Source: a virus. Taken from it: a DNA stretch of 64,000 nt. The stretch lies in the IMG/VR virus record IMGVR_UViG_3300032240_003128; one strand, given 5' to 3'. Every line of letters begins with the position of its first letter. Within the stretch, counting starts at the first letter, position 1. A program made the position numbers and the translations under genes. Under the pieces are notes generated by a model. The model ran no database searches. It was not told where the DNA came from and was given only the letters and a program-made list of their open reading frames with translations. Positions 4,482-42,612 of this stretch are shown here, piece by piece.

Positions 4482-5792
4482 GTGAGCATAAACGAAACTA
4501 TTTTCGAGCAAATCCACGACACATTTCGTGTCGAAAGTGTTATTTATCTAGAAATATTAAGCAATCCAGACCTTTCAGACAAAAAAAATCTTTTATTACA
4601 CATAAGACTTTTAGGACCAAAAGGTTCTAAATTTGAAATTAAATTACATCAAAACAACACATGTTCGTTTGTACACCATATAAGAAATTGTTTATTGCAA
4701 TTTAATCGACCAATAATTTGCTTGAATTCTAAGCTTTTTCAATCTTTCTGTTTAAAACAAGGCTGTAGAAATTTAATTGATTTTAAATTTATTTTTGATT
4801 TAAATTGGTTTGTTGATTATACAGACACCAGTTGTTCTTTTGATAGATTAAGCGATATATTTTCAACTTTTGTTAAATTTATTAAATCAGAAAATTATGA
4901 AATTTATACTAAAGTTTTTCAAAAATTAATTTGTTGTACTGTTCCATATATGGAAAATCAAGGAATCATTCTTGATGATGAAGCTACATTTGTATATCCT
5001 TATTATTCATCCAGTTTTCAAGAAAATGGTAGACTTAATTCAAAGTTAATTTCAAATAGAAACTTTAATCCACATACTTTGTCACATGAATCAAAATTAA
5101 ATTTTACACTACCAGATGATGAGATTTTTGTATCTTTTGACTTCAAAGCATTAGAGTTATATGTTCTTGCATATCTTAGCAATGATCCAAATTTAAATAC
5201 GATGTTATATAACACATGTCATCCGTATGAACAAATAGCGCAATATACTGTAAATTTAGATAGCTTTAAAGATCAAAATTACAAAGATTTGGGTAAGAAG
5301 TTATTTTTGCCAGCAATTTATGGAATATCCGCAAACAAACTAGCAGAATCATTAGGTTGTTCATTTTTGGAAGCTCAGAATGCATTAAGTAAAACAAAAG
5401 CTTTATTTTCAAAAGCTTTTGATTATGTTGTAGGTCAGATGGCTCAAGCAGAAAACTTTGGTTATTGTTTTGATTACTTTAAAAGAAAAAAGAGTTTTTC
5501 TGCAAATGATTCATATAAAGCAATGAATTTCTCTGTACATTCACCAGCTGCTGTCTTTTGTTTTATTAAGATGAATGAAATTCATTCATTTATTAATCAA
5601 AATTTCCGCCTATTGTTTTCAGTCCATGACTGTTTTGTTTTTGCTGTTAAAAAGGCTGAATTAAATTCAACAATAAAAAATATAAAAAATATTTTACAAT
5701 CAGAATTTGAAGATTACAAACCGCTCAAATTTATTGTTGATATTAAATTTGGTGAAAATTTAGGATTTTTGAAAAATTATTCTGAAATTTGA
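4482..5792 (+). CDS. short family-A DNA polymerase-like protein lacking the thumb
   Basis: motif A SFDFKALELYVLAYLSND, motif B KDLGKKLFLPAIYG, motif C LLFSVHDCFVF; MENQGIILD runs almost directly into NGRL. Confidence 0.8.
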   Translation: MSINETIFEQIHDTFRVESVIYLEILSNPDLSDKKNLLLHIRLLGPKGSKFEIKLHQNNTCSFVHHIRNCLLQFNRPIICLNSKLFQSFCLKQGCRNLIDFKFIFDLNWFVDYTDTSCSFDRLSDIFSTFVKFIKSENYEIYTKVFQKLICCTVPYMENQGIILDDEATFVYPYYSSSFQENGRLNSKLISNRNFNPHTLSHESKLNFTLPDDEIFVSFDFKALELYVLAYLSNDPNLNTMLYNTCHPYEQIAQYTVNLDSFKDQNYKDLGKKLFLPAIYGISANKLAESLGCSFLEAQNALSKTKALFSKAFDYVVGQMAQAENFGYCFDYFKRKKSFSANDSYKAMNFSVHSPAAVFCFIKMNEIHSFINQNFRLLFSVHDCFVFAVKKAELNSTIKNIKNILQSEFEDYKPLKFIVDIKFGENLGFLKNYSEI

Positions 5793-5847: not shown

Positions 5848-6402
5848 ATGAAAATATTTCAGTTGTTTAAGATTAACGCAGATGAATTTAGAGAACTTGA
5901 AGATAAATTTGGAAAACTTTGTTTGTATGCCAGTTGGCAGTTGATATCTAATAATTCTCGTAACAACCACCAGTTAGATGTTGATGATATTAAGCAAGAA
6001 CTTCTTATGTCTGTTATTAGAGCTGGAAGTTATTATAAAAGACAAACTTACATTGAATCATCGTTTGAAATTTTAGAGAAGTATGTATTAGATGATGGAA
6101 TATTTAAGAAAATTTTTGATTCTTTGAAGGATTTGTGGAAAAACAAAACACATCACGGTGCATATCGACGTAAATTTGGAGATCCTCAAGAAGAAATCTT
6201 AGAGAAATTAATTAAGAAATTTGTTCCGCTTCAACAACGTCCTGACATAAATTTACGACTTGATATTAATGCAAAATTTGTTATTTACACGAAGCAGATA
6301 ATATGGAATGCTGCTCGTCATGTCGGGAAAAAAATTACTAAAGAGAAACATCTTCGAGTGGGACAGGTATCATTAAGTGAACACGAACATTTGTACATTT
6401 GA
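5848..6402 (+). CDS. sigma-factor region-2-only protein (gp55-like late sigma candidate)
   Basis: DVDDIKQELLMSVIRA and KFVIYTKQIIWNAARH...QVSLSE match sigma70 region 2; no region-4 HTH; AGGAGG SD. Confidence 0.6.
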   Translation: MKIFQLFKINADEFRELEDKFGKLCLYASWQLISNNSRNNHQLDVDDIKQELLMSVIRAGSYYKRQTYIESSFEILEKYVLDDGIFKKIFDSLKDLWKNKTHHGAYRRKFGDPQEEILEKLIKKFVPLQQRPDINLRLDINAKFVIYTKQIIWNAARHVGKKITKEKHLRVGQVSLSEHEHLYI

Positions 6403-6410
6403 GGTTTAGG

Positions 6411-7940
6411 ATGACCCAACTCACGGAAGATCAACAAAAGCTGCTGGAAAATATGCTTCAGCAGCAGAACACACAAACCAAATTCCGTTGGGATGAAAAT
6501 TTCCAACGTAGAATGCTTGGTATTTTTTTAACTGATAGAAATTTCTTGCTTCAAGGAAAGTCTTTAATTTCGCCAGAATATTTCACTAATGAAGTGCATG
6601 TTGCGGCATGTAAAATTTTATTTAAACTTTTTGAAGAACATCCTTATGGTCTTCCAGATAAGATGATCATAGAAAATGATTTACTCGAAAAAGTAAAAGA
6701 CAAATCTGATTCTGTAAGAATGTATTACAAATCAGAACTGGAATGTCTGTATGAGTTCTTTATTCCAAACCAAGCTTCTAGAGATATACTTTACAACAAA
6801 CTGGTAAACTTTTCTAAGATTCAAAGTCTTAGGATAGCAATGGAAGAATCTCAAAGAGATTTAAAGAAAAACCCTGATTCTGAAGAAATGTGGTCTAAAG
6901 TTTACGAAAGATTTCGTAATTGTATGCTTGTTTCTAAGAATTTTGATGCAGGATTTCAGTATTTCACCCAAATAGATCAGTTTTTTAGTGAATTAGTCAA
7001 AGACGAAGAAAGAGTTGATAAATTTACATCAGGATTTTTGTCTATTGATTTTGAAATATCAGGTGGTGGACCAAGACGTGGTGAAATTTATGCTTTTATT
7101 GCTCTTCCCGGTGTTGGTAAATCTCTTGCTTTGGTCAAAGCCGCTGTTGAAAATGTAAACAGAGGATTCAAAGTTGCCTTCGTATCTGTCGAAATGGATT
7201 GGGTTTCCATTTCAAAAAGGTTTACTTCAGCTTATGCTGGAATGCCTTTTAATAAACTTATCAATCAAAAAGAAGAAATTAAAAGTATACTTGAATACAA
7301 AAGCATGGAATACGAAGACAAAAACAGATTGATTGTAAAACAATTTCCTGCCGGAAGTATTGATGTTAACGATATACGGGCTTATCTGAATCAATTAGAA
7401 TTGTATGGATTTTCTCCAGATGTTTTGATTGTTGATTATCCCGGTGAAATGAAAGATACTCCCGGAGTTCCTGTTTGGGAATCTAAGTATAGAATTATTA
7501 GAGACTTAAGAGGTTTGGCTTGCGAAAAGAAAATGCTTGTTTTTACAGCAATGCAGCCAAATAAATCTGCTTCTGATCTTTCAGCTTCTGAATTTATTGA
7601 GGAGGGTAACATTGGTGCATCATTTGATATGTTTAAGCCTCTTGACGGTTTGTGGTCTATTAACAGAACTACCGATGAGGCTAACGCTCAAGTTGGTAGA
7701 ATTTTCGTTATCAAAAGTAGAAATGGTAAATCAAGATACCATTTCCCTGTAGAATACAATCAAGATATGCTTACTATTTCAGAAATTGATTTTGATAAGT
7801 ATAAAACAAAAATGCACAATAAAGCTCAACAAGACGCAAATACTTATAGCATAACAACTGATACGACTAATATTTCTCATATTGATCCACCTAAAAAGGG
7901 CAAGAAGAAACAACAAAATCCTTCAAATCCTATTGACTAG
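6411..7940 (+). CDS. dnaB: replicative DNA helicase (DnaB/gp41 family)
   Basis: ALPGVGKS, SVEM, LIVDY, TAMQPN and KSRNG motifs. Confidence 0.9.
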   Translation: MTQLTEDQQKLLENMLQQQNTQTKFRWDENFQRRMLGIFLTDRNFLLQGKSLISPEYFTNEVHVAACKILFKLFEEHPYGLPDKMIIENDLLEKVKDKSDSVRMYYKSELECLYEFFIPNQASRDILYNKLVNFSKIQSLRIAMEESQRDLKKNPDSEEMWSKVYERFRNCMLVSKNFDAGFQYFTQIDQFFSELVKDEERVDKFTSGFLSIDFEISGGGPRRGEIYAFIALPGVGKSLALVKAAVENVNRGFKVAFVSVEMDWVSISKRFTSAYAGMPFNKLINQKEEIKSILEYKSMEYEDKNRLIVKQFPAGSIDVNDIRAYLNQLELYGFSPDVLIVDYPGEMKDTPGVPVWESKYRIIRDLRGLACEKKMLVFTAMQPNKSASDLSASEFIEEGNIGASFDMFKPLDGLWSINRTTDEANAQVGRIFVIKSRNGKSRYHFPVEYNQDMLTISEIDFDKYKTKMHNKAQQDANTYSITTDTTNISHIDPPKKGKKKQQNPSNPID

Positions 7941-9715: not shown

Positions 9716-10002
9716 TGAATCAGCGGGAAAAAGATCAAAAAAAGAAAGCTAGAGCGATTGCATCAAGAAAGAAAGTGCTTGCTCGTAGATTGGAAATTAG
9801 AAAAACAAGAAAAGAAGAAATTACATTAGAAAAAGAATTTGAATCTAGGGAATCTAAATATTTAAGCAGAGAAGAGATTACGCAACAATTGGAGCATAAT
9901 CTCAAAATTCTTGAGCAGTATGAAAAATTATTAGCAGAGCAAGACAAGTCGCTTGACAATAGTTCTTTGCCTGATAATAATAGCAGTACACCTATGGTGT
10001 GA
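9715..10002 (+). CDS. basic hypothetical protein
   Basis: TAATG coupling to the upstream gene. Confidence 0.65.
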   Translation: MNQREKDQKKKARAIASRKKVLARRLEIRKTRKEEITLEKEFESRESKYLSREEITQQLEHNLKILEQYEKLLAEQDKSLDNSSLPDNNSSTPMV

Positions 10003-10067
10003 ACCTTTGGGGACAGGTAAAGTCCTTAGCAGTGTGGTGTGTAATACACCCAGAAAGGCAGTTGGTT

Positions 10068-11009
10068 ATGGCAGATTACGAGTTAGACACCCTTGATATT
10101 AACGAAATTGGCAGAGAAGCTAATCGTCTTAACAAGGAACAGACAGCAACAAACGACAATTATGTCAGGATGCCGGAAAAAGATGGATTTGTTTTGATCC
10201 GCATTCTTCCAAAGCTTAAAGGCAAACCATTTTTTCATGCGGTAAGAATTCATCGGCTTGGTGAATATCCAAACGCTAAAACAATTTTTTGCACAAGAGA
10301 ATTGATCAAAACTCCCAAAGGCGAGTTTTGGAAAGCATCTAGCCCAGATCGTGAATGCCCAATTTGCAGAGAATATAATGCAATGTGGGAGAAGTCTAAA
10401 AAGATGCCTCCTTCACAAGCAAAAGTTATTCAGGAACAAGCTCGATCAATTAAGCCTGTTGAACGGTATTACTACAATGCCATTGTTCGATCTCAGCTTA
10501 ATGGCAAAACCAATCAAATTGAAAACAATGTTGGACCCAAGATTTTCTCTTGTGGTAAGACTTTGCACAATATCATTTGTGTTTCAATTTATGGCAATGA
10601 AACTACCGGCAAACGCAAATTAGGTGACGTTGCTAGTCCTGTTAACGGCAGAGATTTTAAGGTTGTTAAGGTGGTTCGTGGTGCCAATGGTTATCCAAAC
10701 TACGATCAATCTTTCTTCGAAGATCCTTCACCTCTTGGAACGAAGGAACAAATCAACAATTGGCTTTCATCTTATCAAGATCTGGAATCGATCCCAGTTT
10801 ATCTGACGATTCAACAGATCGAGGAGGCGATTCATTCGTTTCTTTCGGGAGATGAGCCCGTTGCACAAGTTGCAGCAGAGGCACCAAAGAAAGCAGTATC
10901 GAAAAATGCTGCGCCAAAGGTTGAAGAAGGCTTGCTAGATGACGTTGAAGGTTTGATTGACTCTGATATCGAAGCACAGCTTGGTAATATTGGGTTTGGA
11001 AAGAGGTAA
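10068..11009 (+). CDS. gp32-like single-stranded DNA-binding protein
   Basis: IRILP, H...C...CPIC zinc ligands, GRDFKVVK, GYPNYDQSFF and acidic tail. Confidence 0.85.
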   Translation: MADYELDTLDINEIGREANRLNKEQTATNDNYVRMPEKDGFVLIRILPKLKGKPFFHAVRIHRLGEYPNAKTIFCTRELIKTPKGEFWKASSPDRECPICREYNAMWEKSKKMPPSQAKVIQEQARSIKPVERYYYNAIVRSQLNGKTNQIENNVGPKIFSCGKTLHNIICVSIYGNETTGKRKLGDVASPVNGRDFKVVKVVRGANGYPNYDQSFFEDPSPLGTKEQINNWLSSYQDLESIPVYLTIQQIEEAIHSFLSGDEPVAQVAAEAPKKAVSKNAAPKVEEGLLDDVEGLIDSDIEAQLGNIGFGKR

Positions 11010-11064: not shown

Positions 11065-11115
11065 ATTTATTACACTCTATTAGTTTGAGTCAAATTGTTC
11101 TGCATGGAGTTTAGC

Positions 11116-12321
11116 ATGGCTCGTCAAAAGAAAGATTCAGCTTCCCTTGATAATTTATTCACCGATATCGCAAGCGCAACTGGCGCAGAGCTAGTATCCG
11201 AACTTGATCAAGCTCGATATTTTATAGATACAGGCAATTTTGCCATCAATTATTGCTGCTCTGGCAAGTTTTATGGTGGTGGCATCCCCGGTGGCAGATT
11301 GTCTGAAATTTATGGTCCATCAGCATCAAGCAAAAGCCTTATTGGTGCAAACATTCTTGCTGGTATGCAAAGAATGGGTGGCATTGGAGTTATTCTTGAC
11401 ACTGAAAACGCTATCAATGGCGAATTCATTCAGAATGCAACTAAGTGTGATATAAGCAAGTTGCTAAGATACACTCCTGAAACATTAGAAGATTGTTTTA
11501 GCACGATGTATCGTGTCATTAATTATATTCGCAAAGTGAAGAAAATAGAAGTTCCAGTTTGCATTGTTTATGATTCTATTTCTGTTTCACCAAGTGCTAG
11601 AGAATTCAGGGAAACAAAATTGCCTGAAGGATATAGCAAGGCTGATTTTAAACGTATTGTTGGCGGGAACGAACAGCCCGGAGAACGTGCAAAGATTTGT
11701 TCTAAAGAATTAAGAAAACTTAACACTGAAATGGAGCAGAATGATGTTACAGTGGTGGTCCTCAATCAGATTCGTGATAAAATTGGTGTTCTTTACGGTA
11801 ATCCCGAAACTACTGCTGGAGGGGGACAAGGATTGCCATTTTACGCTTCGTTAAGAATGCGTAGTCAAACTCAGAAGAAGATTGAACAAAGCGTTGCCGG
11901 ATCAGCTAAGAAAAAGATTCTTGGCATTAACATTAAGATTCAGAACAAGAAAAACAGATCTTATCGTCCTTTTGTTGAAGTTGATAATATTCCTCTTTAT
12001 TTCGACAGAGGAATGAATCCATTGGGTGGTGCTTTGGGCGCATTGCTGGATTCTGGAAGAATTATTTCGAATGGATCAGGTAATTTCTCAGTAAATCCAG
12101 AATTTACTGATGGCAAAGAAGTTAAATTTAAATCTTCAATGGAAAGAAATGACATCCCAGTGGAGATTGCTCAAGAATATTCTCGAATTCTTGATGCCAC
12201 AGAAGAGCAAATGAAGGAATATTTGCAGTTATATGCAGATGTGATAAATTATAAAGTATCTGGCGAAGTCATCGATGCAGATGATGAATCTGATCTTGAA
12301 GTGGACGATCTTTTAGGATAA
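11116..12321 (+). CDS. recA: RecA/UvsX recombinase
   Basis: GGIPGGRLSEIYGPSASSKS, DTE, YDS, NQIRDKIG and GGGQGLPFYAS motifs. Confidence 0.92.
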   Translation: MARQKKDSASLDNLFTDIASATGAELVSELDQARYFIDTGNFAINYCCSGKFYGGGIPGGRLSEIYGPSASSKSLIGANILAGMQRMGGIGVILDTENAINGEFIQNATKCDISKLLRYTPETLEDCFSTMYRVINYIRKVKKIEVPVCIVYDSISVSPSAREFRETKLPEGYSKADFKRIVGGNEQPGERAKICSKELRKLNTEMEQNDVTVVVLNQIRDKIGVLYGNPETTAGGGQGLPFYASLRMRSQTQKKIEQSVAGSAKKKILGINIKIQNKKNRSYRPFVEVDNIPLYFDRGMNPLGGALGALLDSGRIISNGSGNFSVNPEFTDGKEVKFKSSMERNDIPVEIAQEYSRILDATEEQMKEYLQLYADVINYKVSGEVIDADDESDLEVDDLLG

Positions 12322-30516: not shown

Positions 30517-32589
30517 ATGGTTACTTTGAGCCAGTTTGTAGACAAGAATAAGCTAGAGCAATTCAACAGATTAAATGAAGTTGTTAGTTTTGAGCAATAT
30601 CTCAATCGTTGTTACACCAATCCAAAACTTGTCAGAAATTCACATCAACGAATTTATGACATGATTGTGTCGCAGGGCACATCTGAAATTGAAAAGTACC
30701 GCAAAAAGGTAATTGTTTATAATTTCTTTGAAAAACACGAACAAATCAAGGTCTTTGGAATTGAAGAACAACTTGAATCACTAGTTGCACACTATAAAGG
30801 TGCTGCTGGTGGCTACGGACCAGAAAAGCGAATCCTTCTTCTTTGCGGTCCTGTAGGATCTGCAAAGTCTACAATTGTTCGTCTTATTAAGCGAAGCATG
30901 GAAGATTATTCTCAAAATGATGCTGGTGCTTGGTTTACATATCGTTGGATCAATTTGCCAACAGGTAGCGATGGTATCTACACTTCTGACACTTGTGAAT
31001 GTCCAATGAATGAAGAGCCGCTCAAGCTTCTTCCATTCGATGTTCGCAAAAAGATTCTTTATGAACTTAACGGCATACACAAAGAACAAGCTGATGTGTC
31101 GCAACACACAACTCTTTACACTCTTGACGTTAAGGGTGAAATTAATCCTAAATGCAAGTTCTTTTATGACAAGTTGCTTGAAAAGTATAATGGTGATTGG
31201 ACTCAAGTTCTTTCCAATCACGTTGAAGTTATTCGCAAGAATTACAATGAAGCCAAGCGTGTAGGTATTGCTTCATTCCAGCCAAAGGATGAAAAAAATC
31301 AAGATAGCACTGAGTTGACAGGAGACATCAACTTTGCTTTATTGCCAACATTTGGTAGTGATTCTGACCCTCGCTGCTTCAATTTTGATGGAGAATTTGA
31401 AGTTGCCAACAGAGGTATCATTGAATTTATTGAAATGTTAAAGCTTGAAGTTGCATTCCTTTATGACCTTTTGGGTGCATCTCAGGAACAATCTATCAAG
31501 CCAAAGAAGTATTCTCAGATTTCGATTGATGAATCAATTATTGGGCATACCAATATGCCAGAATATGAGAAGCTCAAGAACAATCAGTTCATGGAAGCTC
31601 TTAAGGATAGAACTGTCAGAATTGAGATTCCTTATTTGCTTGAATGGAGCAAGGAACTCAAGGTTCTTGAACAGGATTATAATTCAGATAAAATCAAGCA
31701 GCATATTGCTCCACACACTCTTGAAATTGCAGCTTTGTTTGCTGTTCTTACCAGATTGGAAGATGACAAAGATAATAAGATCACGATTACGGAAAAGGCT
31801 GATCTTTATGATGGTAAGATGTTACCCGGATGGACTGTTGATCGTGTGAAAGAACTTCGTGAAAAGAATCCCAATGAAGGGATGATGGGTCTTTCTGCTC
31901 GTTATGTTCAAGACAAAGTTTCTTCTACCTTGTCAAGCCGACACGATTATATCAATCCATTTATGGTTCTTAATGCGCTTAAGAGTGGTCTTGATAATCA
32001 TTCTTTGATTACCAATAAAGATCTTGTTCGCAAGTATCAAAACTGCATCACTTTGTCTACCAAGAAGTTAGATGACATTCTGAAAAACGAAGTGCAAAAG
32101 GCTTTGGTTGGTGATGAAGAGGCAATTGTAAGGTTGTGTGCTAACTATATCGATAACCTTATGGCTTATATTAACAAGGCAAAGATTCTTAATAAGATTA
32201 CTGGCAGAGAAGAAACAGCTGATGAGAAATTGATGCGTTCTATTGAATCCAAGATTGATGTTCCAGAATCGACTTGTGATGACTTCCGTAGAATGATTGC
32301 AGCTTTTATTGGTGATCTTGCTGTTAAGGGTAAGATTTTCCGTTGGGACAGTAATCCTCTTCTTAAGAAAGCTTTAGAATCTAAGTTGTTTGAAGATACG
32401 AAGGATCATATTAAGTTGAGTGCATTCTCCAGTGGAGCAAGCACTGTTGATCCTGATGTGCAGAAGAAAATCGATGCTGTAAAACAGCGTTTGGTTGATA
32501 AATATGGATACAATGAACAGTCTGCAACAGATGTTCTAGACTATGTTTCAAGTATCTTTGCTAGGGGCGATCTAGCAGATAACGACTAA
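30517..32589 (+). CDS. prkA: PrkA/YeaG AAA+ serine kinase-family protein
   Basis: GPVGSAKS, CPMNEEPL, DEKNQDSTELTG, ANRG and HIAPHTLE motifs. Confidence 0.95.
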   Translation: MVTLSQFVDKNKLEQFNRLNEVVSFEQYLNRCYTNPKLVRNSHQRIYDMIVSQGTSEIEKYRKKVIVYNFFEKHEQIKVFGIEEQLESLVAHYKGAAGGYGPEKRILLLCGPVGSAKSTIVRLIKRSMEDYSQNDAGAWFTYRWINLPTGSDGIYTSDTCECPMNEEPLKLLPFDVRKKILYELNGIHKEQADVSQHTTLYTLDVKGEINPKCKFFYDKLLEKYNGDWTQVLSNHVEVIRKNYNEAKRVGIASFQPKDEKNQDSTELTGDINFALLPTFGSDSDPRCFNFDGEFEVANRGIIEFIEMLKLEVAFLYDLLGASQEQSIKPKKYSQISIDESIIGHTNMPEYEKLKNNQFMEALKDRTVRIEIPYLLEWSKELKVLEQDYNSDKIKQHIAPHTLEIAALFAVLTRLEDDKDNKITITEKADLYDGKMLPGWTVDRVKELREKNPNEGMMGLSARYVQDKVSSTLSSRHDYINPFMVLNALKSGLDNHSLITNKDLVRKYQNCITLSTKKLDDILKNEVQKALVGDEEAIVRLCANYIDNLMAYINKAKILNKITGREETADEKLMRSIESKIDVPESTCDDFRRMIAAFIGDLAVKGKIFRWDSNPLLKKALESKLFEDTKDHIKLSAFSSGASTVDPDVQKKIDAVKQRLVDKYGYNEQSATDVLDYVSSIFARGDLADND

Positions 32590-32604
32590 TATGAGGATTG
32601 AAAA

Positions 32605-33798
32605 ATGCCCCGCCGTATAGACTCTGATCATAAAGACTTCAGAGACGTAGTCAGTGGCAGGATTAGAAAGAACTTAAAAAAGTTTATTAAAAGTGGTGAA
32701 ATATTTCGCCACCGTGGTAAAAATGGCAAAGTATCAATAAAGATTCCTGCTATTGATATACCTCATTTTCTCCATGGTAGGAATCCCAATGGAGCAGGGC
32801 GTGGAGAAGGTGAACAAGGCGATACAATTGGCAAGGATAAAGGTCAAGGCAAAGGTCAGGGCAATGGTGCTGGTCAGGATGAAAGCGAAGGCATCATTGT
32901 CCAACTAGACATGGAAGACATTCTTCATTTTATGAAGGATGAATTGATGCTTCCTGATCTTAAGCCTAAGCAACAAGCCAATCTCGAAGATGTAAAAATC
33001 AAATACAATAATATTTCTTTAGTTGGTCCAGAATCTCTTAGACATACTCGTCGCACAATGTTGACCGCAATGAAGCGTCTCTGTGGGACAGGTGAAATTA
33101 ATAATTTGTATGAAATTCCCGGAATTAAAGACAAAGTTAAAATGATCAATCCGATTAATTCGGACAAGAGATATCGTCAATACAAAGAAATTAGTTTTCC
33201 ATCTAGCAATGCTGTTGTTATTTTTGCCAGAGATGCAAGTGGATCAATGGATGATCGAAAAGTAAATGTTGTTTCCGACATGGCTTATTGGATTGATGTT
33301 TACATTAGAAACTTTTATGAAAGAGTCGAAAGGCTTTATGTGTGGCATGATGTTCAAGCACACGAAGTAGATGCCAAAGATTTTTACAGAATTAGAAATG
33401 GTGGAGGAACTACTTGCTCCACAGCGTTAGAATTGGTTGCCAAACAATTTGAAAATAGATTTCCACCAAACAATTGGAATATTTATTTCTTTTATTTTAC
33501 CGATGGTGAAAACTACGACAATGACAATGAAGTTTTTACAGCATTGTTGAAGAAAGAATTTCCACAAAGCGTTGTCAACCTTGTCGCTATAACTCAAATC
33601 GGTGCTTATTCTTACAAGAATAGTGTTGCAGAAGCTGTTGAAAAAGCAATAGTCGAAGGTGATTTGGAAGATAACGTAGTTGTTGCAGAAATTCCATTTG
33701 ATGTTATCAATAGTGAAGAGAAGAGAGACGAAGCTATTTTGAAAGCTATTAAGGATATTCTGGGTACTCCTTTCCAAAGTGCTAATCAGGTGTTTTAA
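32605..33798 (+). CDS. yeaH: YeaH/YhbH (DUF444) vWA-like protein
   Basis: IDIPHF, Gly-rich linker, DASGSM, GGGT and TDGEN motifs. Confidence 0.9.
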   Translation: MPRRIDSDHKDFRDVVSGRIRKNLKKFIKSGEIFRHRGKNGKVSIKIPAIDIPHFLHGRNPNGAGRGEGEQGDTIGKDKGQGKGQGNGAGQDESEGIIVQLDMEDILHFMKDELMLPDLKPKQQANLEDVKIKYNNISLVGPESLRHTRRTMLTAMKRLCGTGEINNLYEIPGIKDKVKMINPINSDKRYRQYKEISFPSSNAVVIFARDASGSMDDRKVNVVSDMAYWIDVYIRNFYERVERLYVWHDVQAHEVDAKDFYRIRNGGGTTCSTALELVAKQFENRFPPNNWNIYFFYFTDGENYDNDNEVFTALLKKEFPQSVVNLVAITQIGAYSYKNSVAEAVEKAIVEGDLEDNVVVAEIPFDVINSEEKRDEAILKAIKDILGTPFQSANQVF

Positions 33799-33800
33799 TT

Positions 33801-35396
33801 ATGTCAGATAAATTTCTATTTGGTTCGCCTGTTCTCTTTGGATCAGCAACCACTCCGGGTGTGCCTATTCCAGAAGAATTGCAAAAACACATTCCTACTA
33901 TTTTTCAAGCGTGTAAAGATTTTGGTTTAGATTTTTATCCTACAATTGTTCAAATGCTTTCTCATGACGAGATGTCTGAAGTTGCATCTTACGGTGGTTT
34001 TGCAGTAAGATTTCCTCACTGGAAATTTGGCGCAGAATACGAAGAAATGCAAAGAGGATATCTGTACGGCAATCATAGAATATATGAAATGGTGATTAAT
34101 TCTTCACCATGCTACTTATATTGCTTAAATTCAAATACTTTGCTTGACAATATCACAGTTATTGCTCATGCTCTTGGGCATTGTCACTTTTTCAAAAATA
34201 ACATTCATTTTTCTAGAACTAATACAAATGCTCACAATGAGCTTGCCAACAATGGATCAAATGTAAGAAAGTATATGTCTCGATATGGAAGAGAAACTGT
34301 TACTGAATTCATGGATCATTTGTTCAGAATAGAGACTCTTGTTGATCCAATGAATATCTGGAAAGAAAGAAAAGCAAAAGACGTTGTCATCACTGATAAT
34401 AAAGATTATGTGTTTCCACGAAGAATTAAAACAAAAAATGATTACATGGAAGATTGGATTAATACTAAATCTTTTATAAAAGCTCAAAACAAAAAGATTG
34501 AAGAACGTGAGATTATGCAAGATCTCAATCTTCTTATTACTCCAGAGTCTGACATATTTGGTTATATTAAGGAAAATGCACCGTTCAAACCTTGGCAACG
34601 AGATATTGCAGAGATTCTTTACAACGAAGCAATTTATTTTAGCCCACAAGGCAAGACAAAAGCATTGAATGAAGGTCTTGCAAGTTATTGTGATTATCAC
34701 ATCATTGCAAAGCAAGGTTATTGCAGCCTTGGTCAAGATACAGAAGATGCTGGAATCGTAGAATATTCAATCCACAAGGCTGGAGTTCTTGGCGGCAAGT
34801 ATAGTATGAATCCATACAAACTTGGATTTACCCTTCTTATGGATATTGAGGAAAGATGGGACAAGGGTAGATTTGGCACAGATTATGAAAATTGTACAGA
34901 TCCTATTGAAAAAGAAAACTGGGATCTAAAGATTGGACTGGGTAAGCAAAAAGTTTTTGAAGTATGCAAAAACTATGATGATTATCAATTCATCAATGAG
35001 TTCTTCACTAAAGATTTCTGTGAAAAGAATGAATTCTTTGAGTACAAGCGTTATCCAACAGGTGAAGTTAAGATCGAAAGCAGAGATTACAAAAAGATTA
35101 AAAAGGAATTGTTGCGCAAGTACATTAACCGTGGTTTGCCTAATATCAAACTTATTGAACCAAGGTTTAAAGGAAATATGTTTTTGATGGAACATAAGTG
35201 GGAAGGCATAGAACTTTATAAGGCTTATGCATATGAAGTCATGAAGTCCATATGTTTTCTTATGAGACAACCAGTTGTATTACAAACAAAAAACCATAAT
35301 GGCGATGAAGTTTTTTATTATTGCCAAGATATGAATGGTGATTATAGTGCTGCTGATCCCAAAACAATTACACGGGAGCAACTAAACAAGTTATGA
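33801..35396 (+). CDS. spoVR: SpoVR/YcgB-family protein
   Basis: RFPHWKFG, IYEMVIN, AHALGH..FFKNN, NEGLASY and NPYKLG motifs. Confidence 0.93.
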   Translation: MSDKFLFGSPVLFGSATTPGVPIPEELQKHIPTIFQACKDFGLDFYPTIVQMLSHDEMSEVASYGGFAVRFPHWKFGAEYEEMQRGYLYGNHRIYEMVINSSPCYLYCLNSNTLLDNITVIAHALGHCHFFKNNIHFSRTNTNAHNELANNGSNVRKYMSRYGRETVTEFMDHLFRIETLVDPMNIWKERKAKDVVITDNKDYVFPRRIKTKNDYMEDWINTKSFIKAQNKKIEEREIMQDLNLLITPESDIFGYIKENAPFKPWQRDIAEILYNEAIYFSPQGKTKALNEGLASYCDYHIIAKQGYCSLGQDTEDAGIVEYSIHKAGVLGGKYSMNPYKLGFTLLMDIEERWDKGRFGTDYENCTDPIEKENWDLKIGLGKQKVFEVCKNYDDYQFINEFFTKDFCEKNEFFEYKRYPTGEVKIESRDYKKIKKELLRKYINRGLPNIKLIEPRFKGNMFLMEHKWEGIELYKAYAYEVMKSICFLMRQPVVLQTKNHNGDEVFYYCQDMNGDYSAADPKTITREQLNKL

Positions 35397-36518: not shown

Positions 36519-37853
36519 ATGAAGACAGTTGGTTTTGAACATCTTCATTGTCACAGCGAATACTCTGTCCTTGATGGGCTAGCATCAATTGATGAGTTAA
36601 TTTCACGTTGGTCACCACATGGCGATTATCTTTGCGTGACAGACCATGGATTGATGGGTGCTATCCCCAGTCTAATCACAAAGACAGAACAAGCTGAAAA
36701 GAAATTACAGCCTATTTTTGGCTGCGAGCTTTATGTGAACTCTATTCACAATGAGCCAACAGAAACAGAAGATGCTAGAGATAAATTTATAAAAAATTTA
36801 TCTCCACAAGAATTTGAAAATTTCAAAGTATCCAGTCACATCTTGGCAATTGCGGTTACGAATAAAGGTTATGAAAACCTAACCAAGCTTTGCAGCCTTG
36901 GCTGGAGTCAAGGGTTTTATCGCAAGCCTAGAGTAAATCACAAAACTCTTCAACAATACAAAGAAGGAATTGTGTTTACTTCTTGTTGCTGCGCTTCTGA
37001 AGCTGCCAGAGCTTTGCGTGTGCATGGAAAAGAAATAGCAGAATCTACTGTCCTGAAATATAAAGATATGTTTGGTGATAATTTTTACCTTGAAATGATG
37101 CTTTTAGATTTTGAGTATCAAAGAGAATATGATCAGTTTTTAGTTGAAATGCATATTAAACATCAGATTCCAATGATTATTACTAATGATGTGCATTATG
37201 CATATCAAGAAGACAGCAAATATCAAACTTTGATGATGTTGGTAAACACTAAAAGAACATTAGCTGAAATTGAAAAGTTGAAAGCTGAAAATGCTGATGT
37301 GTTTGAATTGCAAGATAGAAATTTATGGATGAAAACAGAAGAAGAATTGAATCAGAAATGGGCTGAGAAATATTCTGATGTGATTCCTTTGGAGATTTAC
37401 GAACAAGCCAAGATGAATACTGTTAAGATATGTAAGATGGCATCTGGTGTTAAGTTAGACAGAAGTGTTAAATTACCTAGATTGAATGATGATGAAGGCT
37501 CTTTAAAGGATTTGGTATTGAAAGGTATGTTTTACAGAGGAATATCCAAATCAAATCGTATTTACACAAAACGTGTTGCAGAAGAATTGGATCTTATTTT
37601 TAGGAAACAATTTGCTAGTTACTTTTTAATAGTCAAGAGTTTTACCGATGAAGCTAGAAGAAAATGCCAAGAGATTACAGGCTTGGATGGTGTCTATGCG
37701 GTTGGACCCGGTCGAGGTTCTGGTGCTGGTTCTCTCGTCTTATATTTACTTGGTGTTACTGACGTAGATCCTATCAAGCACGATCTTCTGTTCTCACGAT
37801 TCCTGTCAGAGAACAGAGGTAGTCAAGCTGTGCTGAAGTTTAGTCAATCTTGA
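36519..37853 (+). CDS. dnaE: DNA polymerase III alpha, N-terminal part (PHP domain plus first part of palm)
   Basis: HLHCHSEYSVLDG, TDHG, GCE, NDVHY; GPGRGSGAGSLV, DPIKHDLLFSRFL; stops before PDxDxD. Confidence 0.92.
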   Translation: MKTVGFEHLHCHSEYSVLDGLASIDELISRWSPHGDYLCVTDHGLMGAIPSLITKTEQAEKKLQPIFGCELYVNSIHNEPTETEDARDKFIKNLSPQEFENFKVSSHILAIAVTNKGYENLTKLCSLGWSQGFYRKPRVNHKTLQQYKEGIVFTSCCCASEAARALRVHGKEIAESTVLKYKDMFGDNFYLEMMLLDFEYQREYDQFLVEMHIKHQIPMIITNDVHYAYQEDSKYQTLMMLVNTKRTLAEIEKLKAENADVFELQDRNLWMKTEEELNQKWAEKYSDVIPLEIYEQAKMNTVKICKMASGVKLDRSVKLPRLNDDEGSLKDLVLKGMFYRGISKSNRIYTKRVAEELDLIFRKQFASYFLIVKSFTDEARRKCQEITGLDGVYAVGPGRGSGAGSLVLYLLGVTDVDPIKHDLLFSRFLSENRGSQAVLKFSQS

Positions 37854-37868
37854 TTGAAGTTTATATTA

Positions 37869-39776
37869 TTAATTGCTTTTAAAATCATCTAATTTGTCAA
37901 TATTTTCTTGATTTAAAATTTTTGCCATGTCATCTTTGTTTATTATTTTCCTTGCAAGCAATGATTTAATATGGTCGGCAGATAATTTGTTAATGTTATC
38001 TGGACCCAATGCTTCTATAATTTCTTTTCTGGCAGCGTTGTTGTATCCCTTGCCACTAAGACAAGCAAAAACATTATTAGCAGATAATTCTGTTTTATAT
38101 GTAATTATAATCTTTATTATTTTGTATGTTTCAACTTGATAAAAGACAAGATTATCAACACTATTATCAGATAATTTATTCATATTGCGTGAACCTAAGA
38201 TTCTTGCCATTTCATGTTTGTTTTCTGATCGTTCAAGCAAATTATAGACGTGAAAATCACCTAATTTATCAATATTATTTGAACCTAATAATTCTGCCAT
38301 TTTATATTTATAAGGTGCTTCGTTAAGCAATTCATAAGCATAATCAGCAGTTAATTTATCTATATTATTTGAACCTAAGATATTTGCTATTTCTGTTGAT
38401 TCAGAACTATTGTATTTCAACAAACTATAGACATCATGACCTGTTAATTTATCTATATTGTCTTGACCTAATTCTTCTTTAATTTTATATTTATTTTTTG
38501 CACTTTTGATAAAATACAAAACATTCTCATCAGATAATTCTGATTTTTTAATTATCTCTGATATCAAATTTTGATTTTCCGTTCTATTAGCAAATACTAT
38601 CTTGCTATTAAGATCCAATGAGTTGACATAACCGCTTGTGTTTTTGGCAAAATCAAATTGATAATTACTCAAATTTTGCAATTTTCCTAATACAAATTCT
38701 TTCTTTTGATCATCAGTAAGTGTGTTAAAATCTTCATCTGTCATCTTATCTACAACTTTCAAATACATAGGGAAAACTCTAGGATCAGGATCATTCTTGG
38801 CAAATTCGAAAGCTATCCTGTCAGTGTATAATTTTAAATTTTGTTCCCAAATTTCGGGTTCTGTTGTTGTCCAAGTGCTTTCAGGAATACCTTTACTTGC
38901 CAAATATCTTTTATATTCATTTATACTTGTATATCCATTGATACCAATTTTTGATCTTGTGTCTTCTGGGTCTCTAGAATGTTTGTTTTCAGCATCAACC
39001 CACTCAGAAGATTTACCTTCTGGAGCTACACCCGGATTAACATATCTGGCTGGATCATTTTCATCTTTATTAAAATCGAAGACAAAGTATTGAGTTTGAT
39101 GATAACGTATTCTGTAATCAAACCAATGTGATGCCGAAGTTGAACTGGAAATGCACCATCTTTGGTTTTTACCAAATATTCTACATATGTCTGGCGTATC
39201 GCCTTTGAATACCCAAACATTATCGCCTTTGGCTGCTAGGTTTTTTTGATATTTTCTTTCTCCAGCTATTGGGTTGAATAAACCTGATTTTTGTTCGTAT
39301 TTAGTTAAACTGCCTTGGATTGAGTGTAATTCTGATTCAAATTTTGTAAAATCATTAAATTCTTCAATTTTTTTATCTTTGTTTATATAAATTTTATTGT
39401 TTTTCACTTCTAAGCTAATGATTTCGTTGCCGATGAACCTTCTGAGAAGGTTCATCATTTCTGTTACTCTGTTTTTATCTTCGTTTTTGAACAAAAGAAA
39501 AGTGTCAAATTCTGGTTTAGTTATTTGATTTGTGTTTAATTTGTCTTGATAGAATTTAGTTTGTCCATCTTCTTGCTTAATTAATTTTTGTTTGATTAAT
39601 GGAAATCTTTCTCTCAATCTGGCAAATGCAGCTTTTCTATCAACTGGATCTGGTTCATCTTCAAGTTCTTTAATAAAAGCTGCAAGTTCATCTTTAGGCG
39701 ATTTATCCTGTTCTAATGCTCCTTTTATTTGAGCATCTAATGTTTCAGACAATACAAACCAAAGCTTGAAGTTCAT
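37869..39776 (-). CDS. virion-type protein with WC-motif domain and C-terminal ~37-aa helical repeats
   Basis: MNFKLWFVLSE; FGKNQRWCIS; repeated LG.NNIDKL units. Confidence 0.75.
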   Translation of the reverse strand: MNFKLWFVLSETLDAQIKGALEQDKSPKDELAAFIKELEDEPDPVDRKAAFARLRERFPLIKQKLIKQEDGQTKFYQDKLNTNQITKPEFDTFLLFKNEDKNRVTEMMNLLRRFIGNEIISLEVKNNKIYINKDKKIEEFNDFTKFESELHSIQGSLTKYEQKSGLFNPIAGERKYQKNLAAKGDNVWVFKGDTPDICRIFGKNQRWCISSSTSASHWFDYRIRYHQTQYFVFDFNKDENDPARYVNPGVAPEGKSSEWVDAENKHSRDPEDTRSKIGINGYTSINEYKRYLASKGIPESTWTTTEPEIWEQNLKLYTDRIAFEFAKNDPDPRVFPMYLKVVDKMTDEDFNTLTDDQKKEFVLGKLQNLSNYQFDFAKNTSGYVNSLDLNSKIVFANRTENQNLISEIIKKSELSDENVLYFIKSAKNKYKIKEELGQDNIDKLTGHDVYSLLKYNSSESTEIANILGSNNIDKLTADYAYELLNEAPYKYKMAELLGSNNIDKLGDFHVYNLLERSENKHEMARILGSRNMNKLSDNSVDNLVFYQVETYKIIKIIITYKTELSANNVFACLSGKGYNNAARKEIIEALGPDNINKLSADHIKSLLARKIINKDDMAKILNQENIDKLDDFKSN

Positions 39777-39781
39777 AATTT

Positions 39782-40075
39782 TTAGTCCAAGTGGCTAACT
39801 TCATAACCATCAAAATTACTTGTTTTTGAATAATCAATGCTTGGTGTTCCTAGATCACCGAAAGGTTTGTCTGTATTGTAACCTTTAGCTCTGTATGGCA
39901 AGCTTTTTTTTCCTTGCAAAGGAAATCCATAATGCTTGCCTTTAACAAAAGTATTTTCCGGCGCATCTGGTTGTGGGAAGGCATACACCTTCATAATGTC
40001 TTGAAGTTTTTTCTGTGAACCACCAATTTCTGTATCTTTTTTAAATTGTTCTAATGTTTTAAATTTCTTTGCCAT
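39782..40075 (-). CDS. small virion-type hypothetical protein
   Basis: CTAAATA plus GAGG SD upstream. Confidence 0.65.
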   Translation of the reverse strand: MAKKFKTLEQFKKDTEIGGSQKKLQDIMKVYAFPQPDAPENTFVKGKHYGFPLQGKKSLPYRAKGYNTDKPFGDLGTPSIDYSKTSNFDGYEVSHLD

Positions 40076-40106
40076 GTTTCACCTCTACTTTATTTAGGTT
40101 TTTCGC

Positions 40107-40134
40107 TTGATTTTTAACGCATAATTGCTAAAAT
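40107..40134 (+). promoter_or_regulatory. sigma70 promoter for the C-terminal dnaE gene (leaderless)
   Basis: TTGATT-16-TAAAAT with extended TG, ATG 6 nt downstream. Confidence 0.6.
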
Positions 40135-40140
40135 TAACAC

Positions 40141-42612
40141 ATGAACAGCATATCTGTCGAATCTTTTAACAAAATTATTAATAATCAGTTTAAGAAATTT
40201 CCTTTTCAGGATGATCCACGATATCAATTCAGACTTAGATACGAATTATTAGAAATAGAAACTCAGAATTGTTGCGATTATTTTATCGAATTAGTCAGAC
40301 AAAGGAAAAAATTCCCCAATGAGAACAATTTGTTAGTTCCTGTTCTGCTTGGCATTTGTAATGAGTACAATATTGAAGAAATGCCAAAAACCAAGACAAA
40401 TGAGTTTCCTGATGTTGACGTTGATTTTTTAGCAGATGTTAGAGATTATTTAAAGAATGAGTTTACGCCTAGCCAATATAAAGCAGAAAATACTTGTTCT
40501 ATTGGAACTTATGGTAGATATGCTTTGAAGAGTGCCATGATCGATATGGCACGAATTTATGGATACGACCGACAAGAAGTTTTAAACATTACAACAAACT
40601 TAAGAATGAAAGATGAAGATGGAGATGAATTGACATACGAAGAAGCTCTTGAAATGTATCCTGAATTGAAATCTTATATGGACAAATATCCAGAATTAGC
40701 ATTGGCTGTACAAAAACTTCTTCACAGAGTGCGCAATACTGGTAAGCATGCTGGCGGTGTAATTGTTGCCAAAGATGAGATCAACAAGTTTGTTCCTTTG
40801 ATGAAAACGACTGGTGGCGATCAATTAGTTTCTCAGTTTGTTGAAGGTCTAGCAACACAAGAATTAGGACCAATTGGTCTTGTGAAATTCGATTTGCTTG
40901 TTGTTTCTGCTTTGGAACAGGCAGGTCATGCTGCCAAGATGATAAAAGATCGGCATGGCATCAAAGTGATTTGCGGGACCAATCATGATTGGGACAAAAC
41001 TGATTATCTTAACGATGATAAAGCCATATCTTATGCTAATGAAGCAGATTTAATAGGAATATTTCAATATGACAGTAATGGAATTAGAGAAGTTGTAAAG
41101 GCTTCTGGTATTAACAGTTTTGACGATTTAGTTGCGATTGTATCTTTGTACCGTCCCGGTCCATTGAATGCTGAGATGGATCAGGTATTTATTAAAAGAA
41201 AAACTGGACAAGAAGAATATGTTATTCATCCTGTACTTGATCCTATTCTCAAATCAACTTATGGTGTTCTTGTTTATCAAGAGCAAGTAATGAGACTGCT
41301 TAATGTTGTGGGTAAGATTCCATTGAAAGATTGTGAAGCAATTAGAAAAGCCATTTCTAAGAAAAAGGTGTCTACATTTGTAAAATATAAAGAACAATTT
41401 ATTGAAAATGGAATGAGCGTTCTTGGAACAATTAGAGAAGAAGTCACAGAGATATGGAAAAACCTCGAATTTTTCAGTGCCTATGGTTTCAATCGCAGTC
41501 ATGCAGTAAGTTATACCTTTATTTCAAGCCGTCAACTATATTTGAAAGCTTATTATCCTTTGGAATTTTTTACTGCTCTGTTGATGTTGGAGGCTAATGA
41601 AGAAAAGAAGCGCATTTATATTACAGATGCACAGAATCATGGAATTGAAGTTAGAGTCGTTGATTTGAATAAGAGCAAGGCTAATTTCTCAATACACGAT
41701 AATGCTATTTATATTGGATTCGGTAATATTAAAGGCATAGGAATGGATACTGCTAATAAGATTGTGGCGTTACAACCATTTAAAGATGTGGACGATTTTC
41801 TTCGTAGGTTTGGTACTGATTCAAGCGTATTGAAAGCTTTGATTCCGTTGAAGGTGTTTGGAGAAGACATAAAGAAAGCTTATAATTATTGGCAATCTTT
41901 TATGTCGAAAAATAAGAAAGTTATAGACAAGAACAAGAGATCTAACAAGTCTTATCTTGAGCTTAAGAAAACTGTGCTTTCTTTGTTGCCTGAAAAATAT
42001 TGGAATCTAGATTTATCTGAAGAGCTTTTTACCATTCTTAAGTCAATCCATGATTCTGCGGATGTTAACAAGTTATATAAAAAGTGGATAAGGATAAATT
42101 CGAAAGAAGAGGCAAAGATTGAAATTTCTTATGAAGATTTTGATGATGATGACATGGTGATTGAAGACAAAGAAGTATTGCTTGAACTAAACGATATTTG
42201 TGTTGCTGAGAGAAAGCATTATGGTTTTCAGTTTACTTGTAGGCTGAAAATGATGAAGATGTATAATGACAATTGTACGTTTGATCGAGTCATTAGCTCG
42301 CATGCTATGGGTGCTACCAAGCATATGGTTCAAGTTGAAGTCTTGGATGTAAATAAAAGATATTCAAAATCTGGTAAACCTTATTGTCAATTGGTAGCCA
42401 TGGATAGTAATTTTAGAGTTGAAAGAATTAATGTTTGGGAAGATGACTATTCTGTATTCAAGCATTTGTTAGAGGTTAATAAGTGTTTGTCTATGCAAGT
42501 CAAACCACCTTCTAATGGGTTTTCTACTTATAGTTTGAATTCTCCACCTAAGCATAGAAGACACTTACTGCCATCGTCAGAAATGGATTTTAGAATTGTT
42601 TTGATAGACTAG
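40141..42612 (+). CDS. dnaE: DNA polymerase III alpha, C-terminal part (catalytic aspartates, fingers, HhH, OB)
   Basis: FPDVDVDF, GKHAGGV, LVKFDLL, GIFQ, LYRPGP, VYQEQ, YGFNRSHA and IKGIG motifs. Confidence 0.93.
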   Translation: MNSISVESFNKIINNQFKKFPFQDDPRYQFRLRYELLEIETQNCCDYFIELVRQRKKFPNENNLLVPVLLGICNEYNIEEMPKTKTNEFPDVDVDFLADVRDYLKNEFTPSQYKAENTCSIGTYGRYALKSAMIDMARIYGYDRQEVLNITTNLRMKDEDGDELTYEEALEMYPELKSYMDKYPELALAVQKLLHRVRNTGKHAGGVIVAKDEINKFVPLMKTTGGDQLVSQFVEGLATQELGPIGLVKFDLLVVSALEQAGHAAKMIKDRHGIKVICGTNHDWDKTDYLNDDKAISYANEADLIGIFQYDSNGIREVVKASGINSFDDLVAIVSLYRPGPLNAEMDQVFIKRKTGQEEYVIHPVLDPILKSTYGVLVYQEQVMRLLNVVGKIPLKDCEAIRKAISKKKVSTFVKYKEQFIENGMSVLGTIREEVTEIWKNLEFFSAYGFNRSHAVSYTFISSRQLYLKAYYPLEFFTALLMLEANEEKKRIYITDAQNHGIEVRVVDLNKSKANFSIHDNAIYIGFGNIKGIGMDTANKIVALQPFKDVDDFLRRFGTDSSVLKALIPLKVFGEDIKKAYNYWQSFMSKNKKVIDKNKRSNKSYLELKKTVLSLLPEKYWNLDLSEELFTILKSIHDSADVNKLYKKWIRINSKEEAKIEISYEDFDDDDMVIEDKEVLLELNDICVAERKHYGFQFTCRLKMMKMYNDNCTFDRVISSHAMGATKHMVQVEVLDVNKRYSKSGKPYCQLVAMDSNFRVERINVWEDDYSVFKHLLEVNKCLSMQVKPPSNGFSTYSLNSPPKHRRHLLPSSEMDFRIVLID

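Follow-up and report, generated by a model that had tools for sequence, protein, structure and literature searches.

A conserved, intein-free DnaE encoded by two genes in large phages, with the catalytic residues of one polymerase distributed between two proteins

A complete DnaE polymerase is encoded in two pieces at positions 36519-42612 of a 64,000-nt stretch of the IMG/VR virus record IMGVR_UViG_3300032240_003128 (the whole of this stretch is referred to below as the window). The upstream gene (gene 1) encodes the N-terminal half of the enzyme (N-half) and the downstream gene (gene 2) encodes the C-terminal half (C-half), and the catalytic core resides on two chains rather than on a single polypeptide: the GS loop and two arginines are encoded by gene 1, and all three aspartates by gene 2. 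It is well established from structural work on DnaE that the GS motif and the arginines bind the deoxynucleoside triphosphate (dNTP) and that the aspartates bind the metals. We consider it probable (roughly 0.8) that the two products constitute a two-subunit DnaE whose active site is composite and which is held together, at least in part, by two "overlap pieces", namely a degenerate copy of the first part of the palm (palm-N) that opens gene 2 and an aspartate-free tail that closes gene 1. The features of the locus, each with its position, strand and description, are as follows:

36519-37853, + strand: gene 1, the N-half, an open reading frame (ORF) of 444 amino acids (aa) with a Pfam PHP domain at residues 8-194; mean predicted local distance difference test score (pLDDT) 90.6 when modelled alone with AlphaFold2 (AF2); ratio of nonsynonymous to synonymous substitution rates (dN/dS) approximately 0.03-0.14
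37704-37721, + strand: GPGRGS loop, residues 396-401, the GS or triphosphate-binding motif, from the translation aligned to the motif of solved DnaE chains
37797-37817, + strand: R427 and R433 in LLFSRFLSENR, equivalents of E. coli R390 and R396 by phmmer alignment to 2HNH residues 320-398
37818-37853, + strand: gene 1 tail GSQAVLKFSQS and stop codon, a local variant of the family motif RGGKxMKLRF
37820-37863, + strand: 21-nt tandem repeat in 2.1 copies, lying over the gene 1 tail and stop codon (Tandem Repeats Finder)
37869-39776, - strand: spacer ORF of 635 aa
39782-40075, - strand: spacer ORF of 97 aa
40107-40134, + strand: promoter-like site TTGATT-16-TAAAAT, found by sequence scan, with its end 6 nt upstream of the gene 2 start codon (ATG)
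40141-42612, + strand: gene 2, the C-half, an ORF of 823 aa with the degenerate palm-N copy, catalytic strand, thumb, fingers, helix-hairpin-helix (HhH) and C-terminal OB fold (ORF, Pfam, AF2)
40141-40401, + strand: residues 1-87 of gene 2, the degenerate second palm-N copy (phrog_405 match, hhalign, family conservation, dN/dS, AF2 helices)
40408-40428, + strand: PDVDVDF, residues 90-96, the strand with two catalytic aspartates, from the translation and alignment to 2HNH and 2HPI
40885-40893, + strand: K249-F250-D251, with the third catalytic aspartate (E. coli D555 region), from the translation; the DnaE structure alignment spans the site

A preliminary description of the locus had proposed that gene 1 has an intact PHP domain, the RGSG motif and LLFSRFLSENR and ends before PDxDxD, and that gene 2, situated about 2.3 kb downstream past two genes on the opposite strand, carries PDVDVDF and KFD. 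Both points hold: the ORFs occupy the positions given above, with a gap of 2287 nt between gene 1 and gene 2, the content of gene 1 is confirmed by Pfam, by its translation and by mapping onto chains in the PDB, and both motifs of gene 2 are found in its translation and in the alignment to 2HNH and 2HPI. Besides the PHP domain, in which all nine metal-binding positions of active PHP proofreaders appear to be occupied, gene 1 matches positions 3-100 of the 260 positions of the Pfam DNA_pol3_alpha profile, and gene 2 takes up the same profile at positions 97-259 from its residue 85 on, followed by the finger domain and HHH_6. The NCBIfam DnaE model PRK05673 is covered at positions 3-400 by gene 1 and at positions 401-865 by residues 89-560 of gene 2, so the two genes together make up exactly one DnaE, whose domain order (PHP, palm, thumb, fingers, HhH, OB) is kept and is colinear across both genes according to Pfam, NCBIfam and structure matches. 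In the PDB alignments, E88 of gene 2 corresponds to residue 398 of the E. coli enzyme, and D91 and D93 to D401 and D403, which places the cut between the equivalents of R396 and residue 398.

The same two-gene arrangement is found in three viral contigs with 73-89% identity (L002, L003 and L004). In L002 the spacer of about 0.34 kb holds the 97-aa ORF only, and the two halves lie in one reading frame, 114 codons apart; in L003 and L004 there is, besides this ORF, a relative of the 635-aa ORF with a length of 550 or 450 aa. Two more distant records are split at the same point: L005 (43-48% identity), with 7.4 kb between the N-half and a downstream C-half bearing an intein in the fingers, and L006 (27-34% identity), with one 152-aa ORF between the halves. 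The spacer ranges from 0.34 to 7.4 kb among these relatives, and the split point, for whose conservation the preliminary description had pointed to relatives, is the same in all of them, down to about 30% identity. In a large protein collection, residues 1-260 of gene 2 used as a query retrieved 1734 proteins, and the last 195 residues of gene 1 retrieved 2144 proteins of 244-777 aa, where both totals may include fragments and the former may also include contiguous genes. The best 120 of the 1734 C-half matches have no PHP domain and all start within 5 residues of each other; most of them are 820-870 aa long, the others being intein-bearing longer forms or shorter pieces. The best 120 of the 2144 N-half matches are mostly of 400-480 aa and comprise a PHP domain and a partial palm. 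The secure size of the family is at least about 100 clusters (at 90% identity) for each half, on contigs of up to 670 kb. The split DnaE is a large and old family that is not particular to this locus.

The preliminary description also held that gene 2 opens with a degenerate second copy of the palm segment, which has lost RGSG and the arginines, and this is borne out by profile comparisons. A BLASTP comparison of residues 1-90 of gene 2 with gene 1 gives no match. Searched on their own, the 87 N-terminal residues of gene 2 fall on positions 338-385 of phrog_405, a phage DnaE profile (E 7.8e-4). Positions 349-440 of this profile are matched by the C-terminal 110 residues of gene 1, and from position 441 on it is matched by the body of gene 2. 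When the family profiles are compared with hhalign, residues 326-370 of the N-half fall on residues 6-49 of the C-half (E 1.2e-4, probability 55%), and MAFFT sets the RLxxEL...YFL segment of 62 contiguous DnaE proteins on the C-half copy. By these comparisons the N-terminal copy in gene 2 is homologous to palm-N, the homology being weak at the level of single sequences. A recent self-duplication is ruled out by the negative BLASTP result and by homology at the profile level only, and the duplication of palm-N is old, since the homology becomes visible only with profiles. About 17-20 residues are missing from the C-half copy, among them the strand and the GPGRGS loop, and so are both arginines; G[RK]GS occurs in 0 of 120 C-half family members and PDxDxD in 120 of 120. 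Within the copy, E35, F48, N60, N63 and L70 are invariant in the family alignment and the motif NENNLLVP is conserved; farther on, the invariant residues are P90, D91, D93, D95, K249 and D251, and F250 is almost invariant.

On the side of the N-half, G396, R399, G400 and S401 are invariant in 104 sequences, and both triphosphate arginines are present in all 113 of the 113 N-half family tails. The tail that follows the last arginine is conserved in these 113 N-halves as well, with the consensus R-GG-K-Q-M-K-L-R-F; compared with P-D-I-D-I-D-F, it retains the hydrophobic positions and has Q, K and R in place of the aspartates, and it looks like a copy of the aspartate strand in which the aspartates have been replaced. 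This aspartate-free tail, which was absent from the preliminary description, supplies the second side of a reciprocal loss: taken together with the C-half copy, it suggests that the duplicated unit reached from the first palm helix to the end of the aspartate strand, each gene having degraded a different part of it. Partial duplication followed by reciprocal loss, which had been put forward earlier, is the best-supported reading in view of the homologous overlap, the loss of GS in 120 of 120 C-halves and the aspartate-free tail of the N-half, with the two products predicted to form a heterodimer. The variant of the tail found in the window, R-GS-Q-A-V-L-K-F-S-Q-S, is the same in L004, and L002 and L003 differ at the last one or two residues. 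The 21-nt repeat that lies over it encodes SQAVLKF and then SQS-stop, the stop codon of the N-half being located inside the second repeat unit.

Selection was assessed by pairwise Nei-Gojobori estimates among the window, L002, L003 and L004, in which dS exceeds 1 and is saturated; with this limitation, dN/dS is 0.02-0.10 for the PHP domain, 0.04-0.17 for palm-N of gene 1, 0.02-0.06 for residues 1-87 of gene 2, 0.02-0.07 for residues 88-260 of gene 2 and about 0.05 for the 97-aa ORF. Relaxed selection was looked for in either half, and in every segment dN/dS is far below 1. These values point unambiguously to strong purifying selection on both halves and on both overlap pieces, neither half being in decay.

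In the phage collection, the nearest record is that of the uncultured phage LR756511.1 (595 kb), which encodes a contiguous DnaE of 1179 aa with canonical spacing and no overlap pieces, and whose genes downstream of DnaE are syntenic with the window. It is also the sole close match in that collection, in which no close member of the split family was found among the cultured phages. DnaE is contiguous in Streptomyces phage Annadreamy (gp58) and Rhizobium phage V1VFA-S (gp111), and a split DnaE in Streptomyces BE-cluster phages is not borne out. In the tree of the N-terminal region, the DnaE of LR756511.1 forms a clade with two other contiguous proteins, P0128 and P0132, and the sister of this clade is a split N-half, P0343 (support 100/99). 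The contiguous trio and P0343 are nested in two clades, of 14 rows (100/100) and of 18 rows (100/99), in which all other members are split genes. Constraining all split rows to one clade costs 44 log-likelihood units (p 0.0018 in the approximately unbiased (AU) test, for a group chosen after the first tree had been inspected). In the tree of the C-terminal region the trio is again placed within the split clade, where a 25-row clade has a support of 100% and the nesting itself a support of 84-91%.

Since the split members share a derived tail and a derived copy, a single re-fusion is far more parsimonious than independent splits, and the lineage of LR756511.1 is probably such a re-fusion, which discarded exactly the tail and the degenerate copy. 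The re-fused junction has the form ...FLSxxR + x[DE][FLY] + PDxDxDF, in which the N-half, up to and including its last arginine, is followed by the part of the C-half that begins three residues ahead of the proline. The split appears to be old and to have been undone at least once. The GS segment of the N-half and the aspartate strand of the C-half would be the functional pair, because they were retained in the re-fusion, and the tail and the degenerate copy would be needed only in the two-piece enzyme, because they were lost in it. Other types of N-half with different tails (RLPxLML, RDRIKMAKMI and similar), whose tree positions are unresolved, may be either older members of the same split or products of independent events.

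The two halves were modelled separately with AF2, the C-half on an 85-row family alignment and the N-half on 104 rows; in all two-block alignments of the pair, MAFFT misplaced the N-half rows. The model of the C-half (pLDDT 84.6, predicted template modelling score (pTM) 0.68) exhibits confident helices in the N-terminal copy (block means 77-91), and residues 85-96, which comprise the PDVDVDF strand, have pLDDT below 50 and no strand assigned. The model of the N-half (pLDDT 90.6, pTM 0.83) has pLDDT below 50 in the tail (residues 435-444), and no strand is assigned to VYAVGPGRGS. The low confidence is confined to the junction strands, the models being confident elsewhere. This is indirect evidence compatible with a sheet that needs both chains to be complete, low pLDDT having other possible causes as well. 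Comparison of the C-half model with the DnaE structures of E. coli, T. aquaticus and M. tuberculosis by VIA-align yields Z 20-22; most of the alignments begin at model residues 86-90, opposite residues 398-400 of the chains, and a few begin earlier. A match to the OB fold is found at C-half residues 706-823.

On the basis of the observed gene structure, conservation, selection, homology of the overlap pieces, distribution of catalytic residues and phylogeny, we infer physical association of the two proteins, composite catalysis and a docking role of the overlap pieces. Two separate mRNAs would be translated, and the subunits would assemble without being covalently joined. Subunit 1 would supply the PHP domain and the first half of the Pol-beta-like palm, i.e. 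the strand that ends in the GS loop, the next helix and the two arginines, and subunit 2 would supply the strand with two catalytic aspartates, the third aspartate, the thumb, fingers, HhH and OB. The arrangement probably had a single origin in a partial duplication of the palm-N module together with the aspartate strand, followed by reciprocal loss, in which the upstream gene would have retained the GS loop and the arginines while its own copy of the aspartate strand turned into a basic and hydrophobic tail, and the downstream gene would have retained the aspartates while the GS loop and its strand were deleted from its own copy. The overlap pieces would now be conserved for their own sake, most likely as docking elements, and the space between the genes would have become a slot for unrelated cargo genes. 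Several points weigh against this reading. Binding of the two proteins to each other and DNA synthesis by them are what we infer; the C-half copy is strongly conserved, with N60 and N63 invariant, and could in principle be a substitute nucleotide-binding site; the dN/dS values are approximate owing to the saturation of dS; and the window contains a short gene resembling family-A polymerases (4482-5792), so the split DnaE need not be the main or the only polymerase. Going further, one may tentatively imagine, though we lean against it, that the overlap pieces are a protein "zipper" kept on purpose after the partial duplication, and that the split is reversible, adaptive and long-lived and no frozen accident. 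If so, its benefits could include separate dosage or exchange of the subunit that carries proofreading and NTP binding, or a protected slot for cargo.

The conservation of the C-half copy lends itself to a different explanation, according to which the C-half would be self-sufficient by virtue of its own NENNLL helix cap, the N-half would be an accessory exonuclease or pyrophosphatase of the PHP type, and the palm fragment of the N-half would serve as a docking handle. We regard this as improbable. The N-terminus of the C-half is indeed confidently folded on its own in the AF2 model, N60 and N63 are invariant, the copy overlays the canonical palm-N in some structural alignments and MAFFT puts palm-N of contiguous DnaE proteins on it. 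However, the GS loop and the arginines are invariant in the N-half, which is unexpected for a mere handle, the copy has no strand preceding GS, and the aspartate strand is the only element of the core with low confidence in the lone model. The re-fused lineage, moreover, retained the version of the N-half and dropped the copy of the C-half. A broken or decaying gene, a pseudogene made by a mobile element or an artefact of assembly might be suspected from the variable, foreign-looking genes in the gap and from the second polymerase-like gene in the window, but the same split is present in independent contigs from different samples, both halves and the overlap pieces are under strong purifying selection, the promoter of gene 2 is conserved, all catalytic residues are kept, and no homing endonuclease or transposase is found in the gap by Pfam, PHROG and NCBIfam. 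By these conservation data such an origin is effectively refuted.

Joining of the halves after transcription or translation, whether by an unrecognised split intein, by trans-splicing or by ribosomal bypass, has in its favour that ...ENR followed by NEF-PDVDVDF gives the canonical spacing, a point raised in the preliminary description and strengthened here by the identical junction in the re-fused contiguous relatives, and that split-intein DnaE is known in cyanobacteria and in "fractured genes" (Dassa et al. 2009, PMC2677866). Nevertheless, neither protein matches any intein family at E 0.01, while the same models find inteins in other members of the family. In the junction consensus of the family (R-GG-K...F and G-E-F-P-D) there is no conserved Cys, Ser or Thr after the arginine, and no Asn followed by such a nucleophile before PD. 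With no Hint domain, no nucleophile at the junction and overlap pieces that are homologous to the palm of DnaE, a split intein is rejected, in accordance with the earlier remark that intein termini are not visible at the split. Likewise, no Rfam intron reaches the gathering threshold in the window, and only chance-level matches appear in 37500-40600 at E up to 10; in view of this result and the opposite-strand orientation of the spacer genes, a group I or group II intron or a ribozyme between the halves is rejected. Joining at the RNA level, already held to be the less likely course, is further disfavoured by the promoter that gene 2 has of its own, by purifying selection on the opposite-strand genes between the halves and by the distance of up to 7.4 kb between the halves in relatives. 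Joining in any of these forms thus seems very improbable, and assembly of two separately made subunits remains the preferred reading. True inteins are borne by many members of both half-families: in C-halves PF14890 is found in the fingers, and N-halves have inserts about 400 aa long (examples are L005:7929-11993, P0006, P0026, P0127 and P0131). Clearly, this lineage is exposed to inteins, and it uses none at the split point.

Gene 2 is probably transcribed separately into a leaderless or nearly leaderless mRNA. The promoter that had been attributed to it earlier corresponds to TTGATT-16-TAAAAT, a consensus match in which both hexamers are invariant in four relatives and the surrounding bases, those between the hexamers and those behind them, are variable. 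Gene 2 is not preceded by a Shine-Dalgarno sequence. The divergent 97-aa ORF, which has a strong Shine-Dalgarno sequence (GAGGTG), shares the promoter region with gene 2 and is found between the halves in the window, L002, L003 and L004. It has no match in Pfam, PHROGs or NCBIfam, and no counterpart of it was found beside the contiguous DnaE of LR756511.1. The 635-aa spacer protein consists in its C-terminal half of at least 8 helical repeats, each about 30 residues long (ILGxxNIDKLxxxxVYxLL...NKxEMA). L002 does not have this protein, which changes far more rapidly than the genes around it: it is 36% and 23% identical to its versions in L004 and L003, respectively, as against 73-94% for the DnaE halves. 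It has no match in Pfam, PHROGs or NCBIfam, and in the Atlas it matches viral hypothetical clusters, with a weak resemblance to DUF4116. Sequence matching of the spacer ORFs against Pfam, PHROG and NCBIfam reveals no homing endonuclease or transposase.

The family-A polymerase-like gene belongs to a replication module in the same window, whose members are:

554-1972: SF2 helicase
4482-5792, + strand: family-A DNA polymerase-like gene (PolA-like), 436 aa, with no exonuclease domain; motif A is DFKALE, and motif C is HDC, not HDE
6399-7940: DnaB-like helicase
9999-11009: gp32-like single-stranded DNA-binding protein (SSB)
11095-12321: RecA

Just upstream of the DnaE locus, genes for a PrkA-type AAA kinase, a DUF444 (YeaH-like) protein and a SpoVR-like protein stand in a row at 30517-35396 (+ strand), and this trio is conserved in L002-L004. 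A peculiarity of gene 1 was encountered in L002 (6290-6345) and L003 (4655-4725), where an insert of 8 nt (TAGGTCAA or TAGCTGAC) follows straight after the HxH codons of the PHP domain. As a result of the insert, the first 12 codons (MKIVG[YF]EHLHLH) end at TAG, and what remains of the gene lies in the -1 frame. Leader peptide, insert position and downstream frame are all conserved, even though dS between the two contigs exceeds 1; this may reflect programmed recoding, a lesion that is tolerated, or a start farther downstream, with loss of two metal ligands of the PHP domain.

The products of these genes are currently annotated as fragments of "DNA polymerase III alpha" or "PHP domain protein", so that contamination or a broken gene may wrongly be assumed. 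They belong to a large and apparently successful clade of big phages, in which the nucleotide-binding loop is on one protein and the metal-binding aspartates are on the other. If confirmed biochemically, the pair would represent a natural two-piece replicase and would illustrate how a duplicated overlap allows a gene to be divided within its catalytic centre and how such a gene can be joined again. It would also provide a ready-made system for work on the cross-talk of the catalytic strand with the PHP proofreader and the NTP-binding subdomain.

To our knowledge, in all C-family replicases studied so far the Pol-beta-like active site is located on one chain. With the single-chain DnaE enzymes of E. 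coli (2HNH, 5FKU), T. aquaticus (2HPI, 3E0D) and M. tuberculosis (7PU7) the split enzyme shares all domains and motifs, and once the overlap is removed, their order and spacing are the same as in the bacterial proteins and in those of phages LR756511.1, Annadreamy (gp58) and V1VFA-S (gp111). It differs from them in being made of two polypeptides, whose junction module has been duplicated and has degenerated reciprocally; gene 2 has a promoter of its own, and cargo genes lie between the halves. In cyanobacterial dnaE and in "fractured genes", split inteins are used (Dassa et al. 2009, NAR 37:2560, PMC2677866). The likeness to these systems consists in a DnaE in two pieces and, in the case of fractured genes, in the presence of other genes between the pieces; on the other hand, their pieces are joined by protein trans-splicing at different sites, and the gap usually contains a gene for a homing endonuclease, whereas no Hint domain, nucleophile or endonuclease was found here.

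Splits without inteins are reportedly found in the gp43 DNA polymerase of T4-like phages and in the NrdA of Aeromonas phage Aeh1, which is split by mobE. Their fragments assemble non-covalently into a working form of an essential replication enzyme, and the split is attributed to insertion of a homing endonuclease; we know of no report of a duplicated overlap in either. These are enzymes of other families (a family B polymerase and a ribonucleotide reductase), and an endonuclease insertion in their case contrasts with a partial duplication in the present one.

A search of the literature revealed no description of a full-size split DnaE family, and only intein-split or frameshifted dnaE genes are mentioned by Timinskas et al. 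2014. Among the systems described so far, the nearest is found in group 2.2 (T4-like) jumbo phages, whose minimal split Pol III alpha consists of two stand-alone proteins (Iyer et al. 2021, Viruses 13:63, PMC7824862). There, the split lies between an N-terminal NTP-binding subdomain and a C-terminal Mg/DNA-binding subdomain, the pieces are predicted to reconstitute one enzyme, and the split genes are distant from each other and occur alongside a family B polymerase (PMC7824862). Judged by the wording of that paper, the two systems are alike in comprising two intein-free proteins and in the same kind of cut. The jumbo-phage enzyme, however, is a minimal core devoid of PHP and other DnaE domains, whereas PHP, thumb, fingers, HhH and OB are present here at full size. 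Here, too, the halves are neighbours, each of them has a conserved leftover copy of the junction element of the other, a duplicated overlap that is unmentioned there, and a PolA-like gene is found instead of PolB: PF00136 (PolB) has no match in five related records (four fragments and the full 595-kb LR756511.1), nor among the large ORFs of the window. The comparisons confirm a real, conserved, intein-free two-gene DnaE, which joins the already known theme of genes in pieces; its interest lies in a cut that passes through the catalytic centre of a replicase and is apparently reversible.

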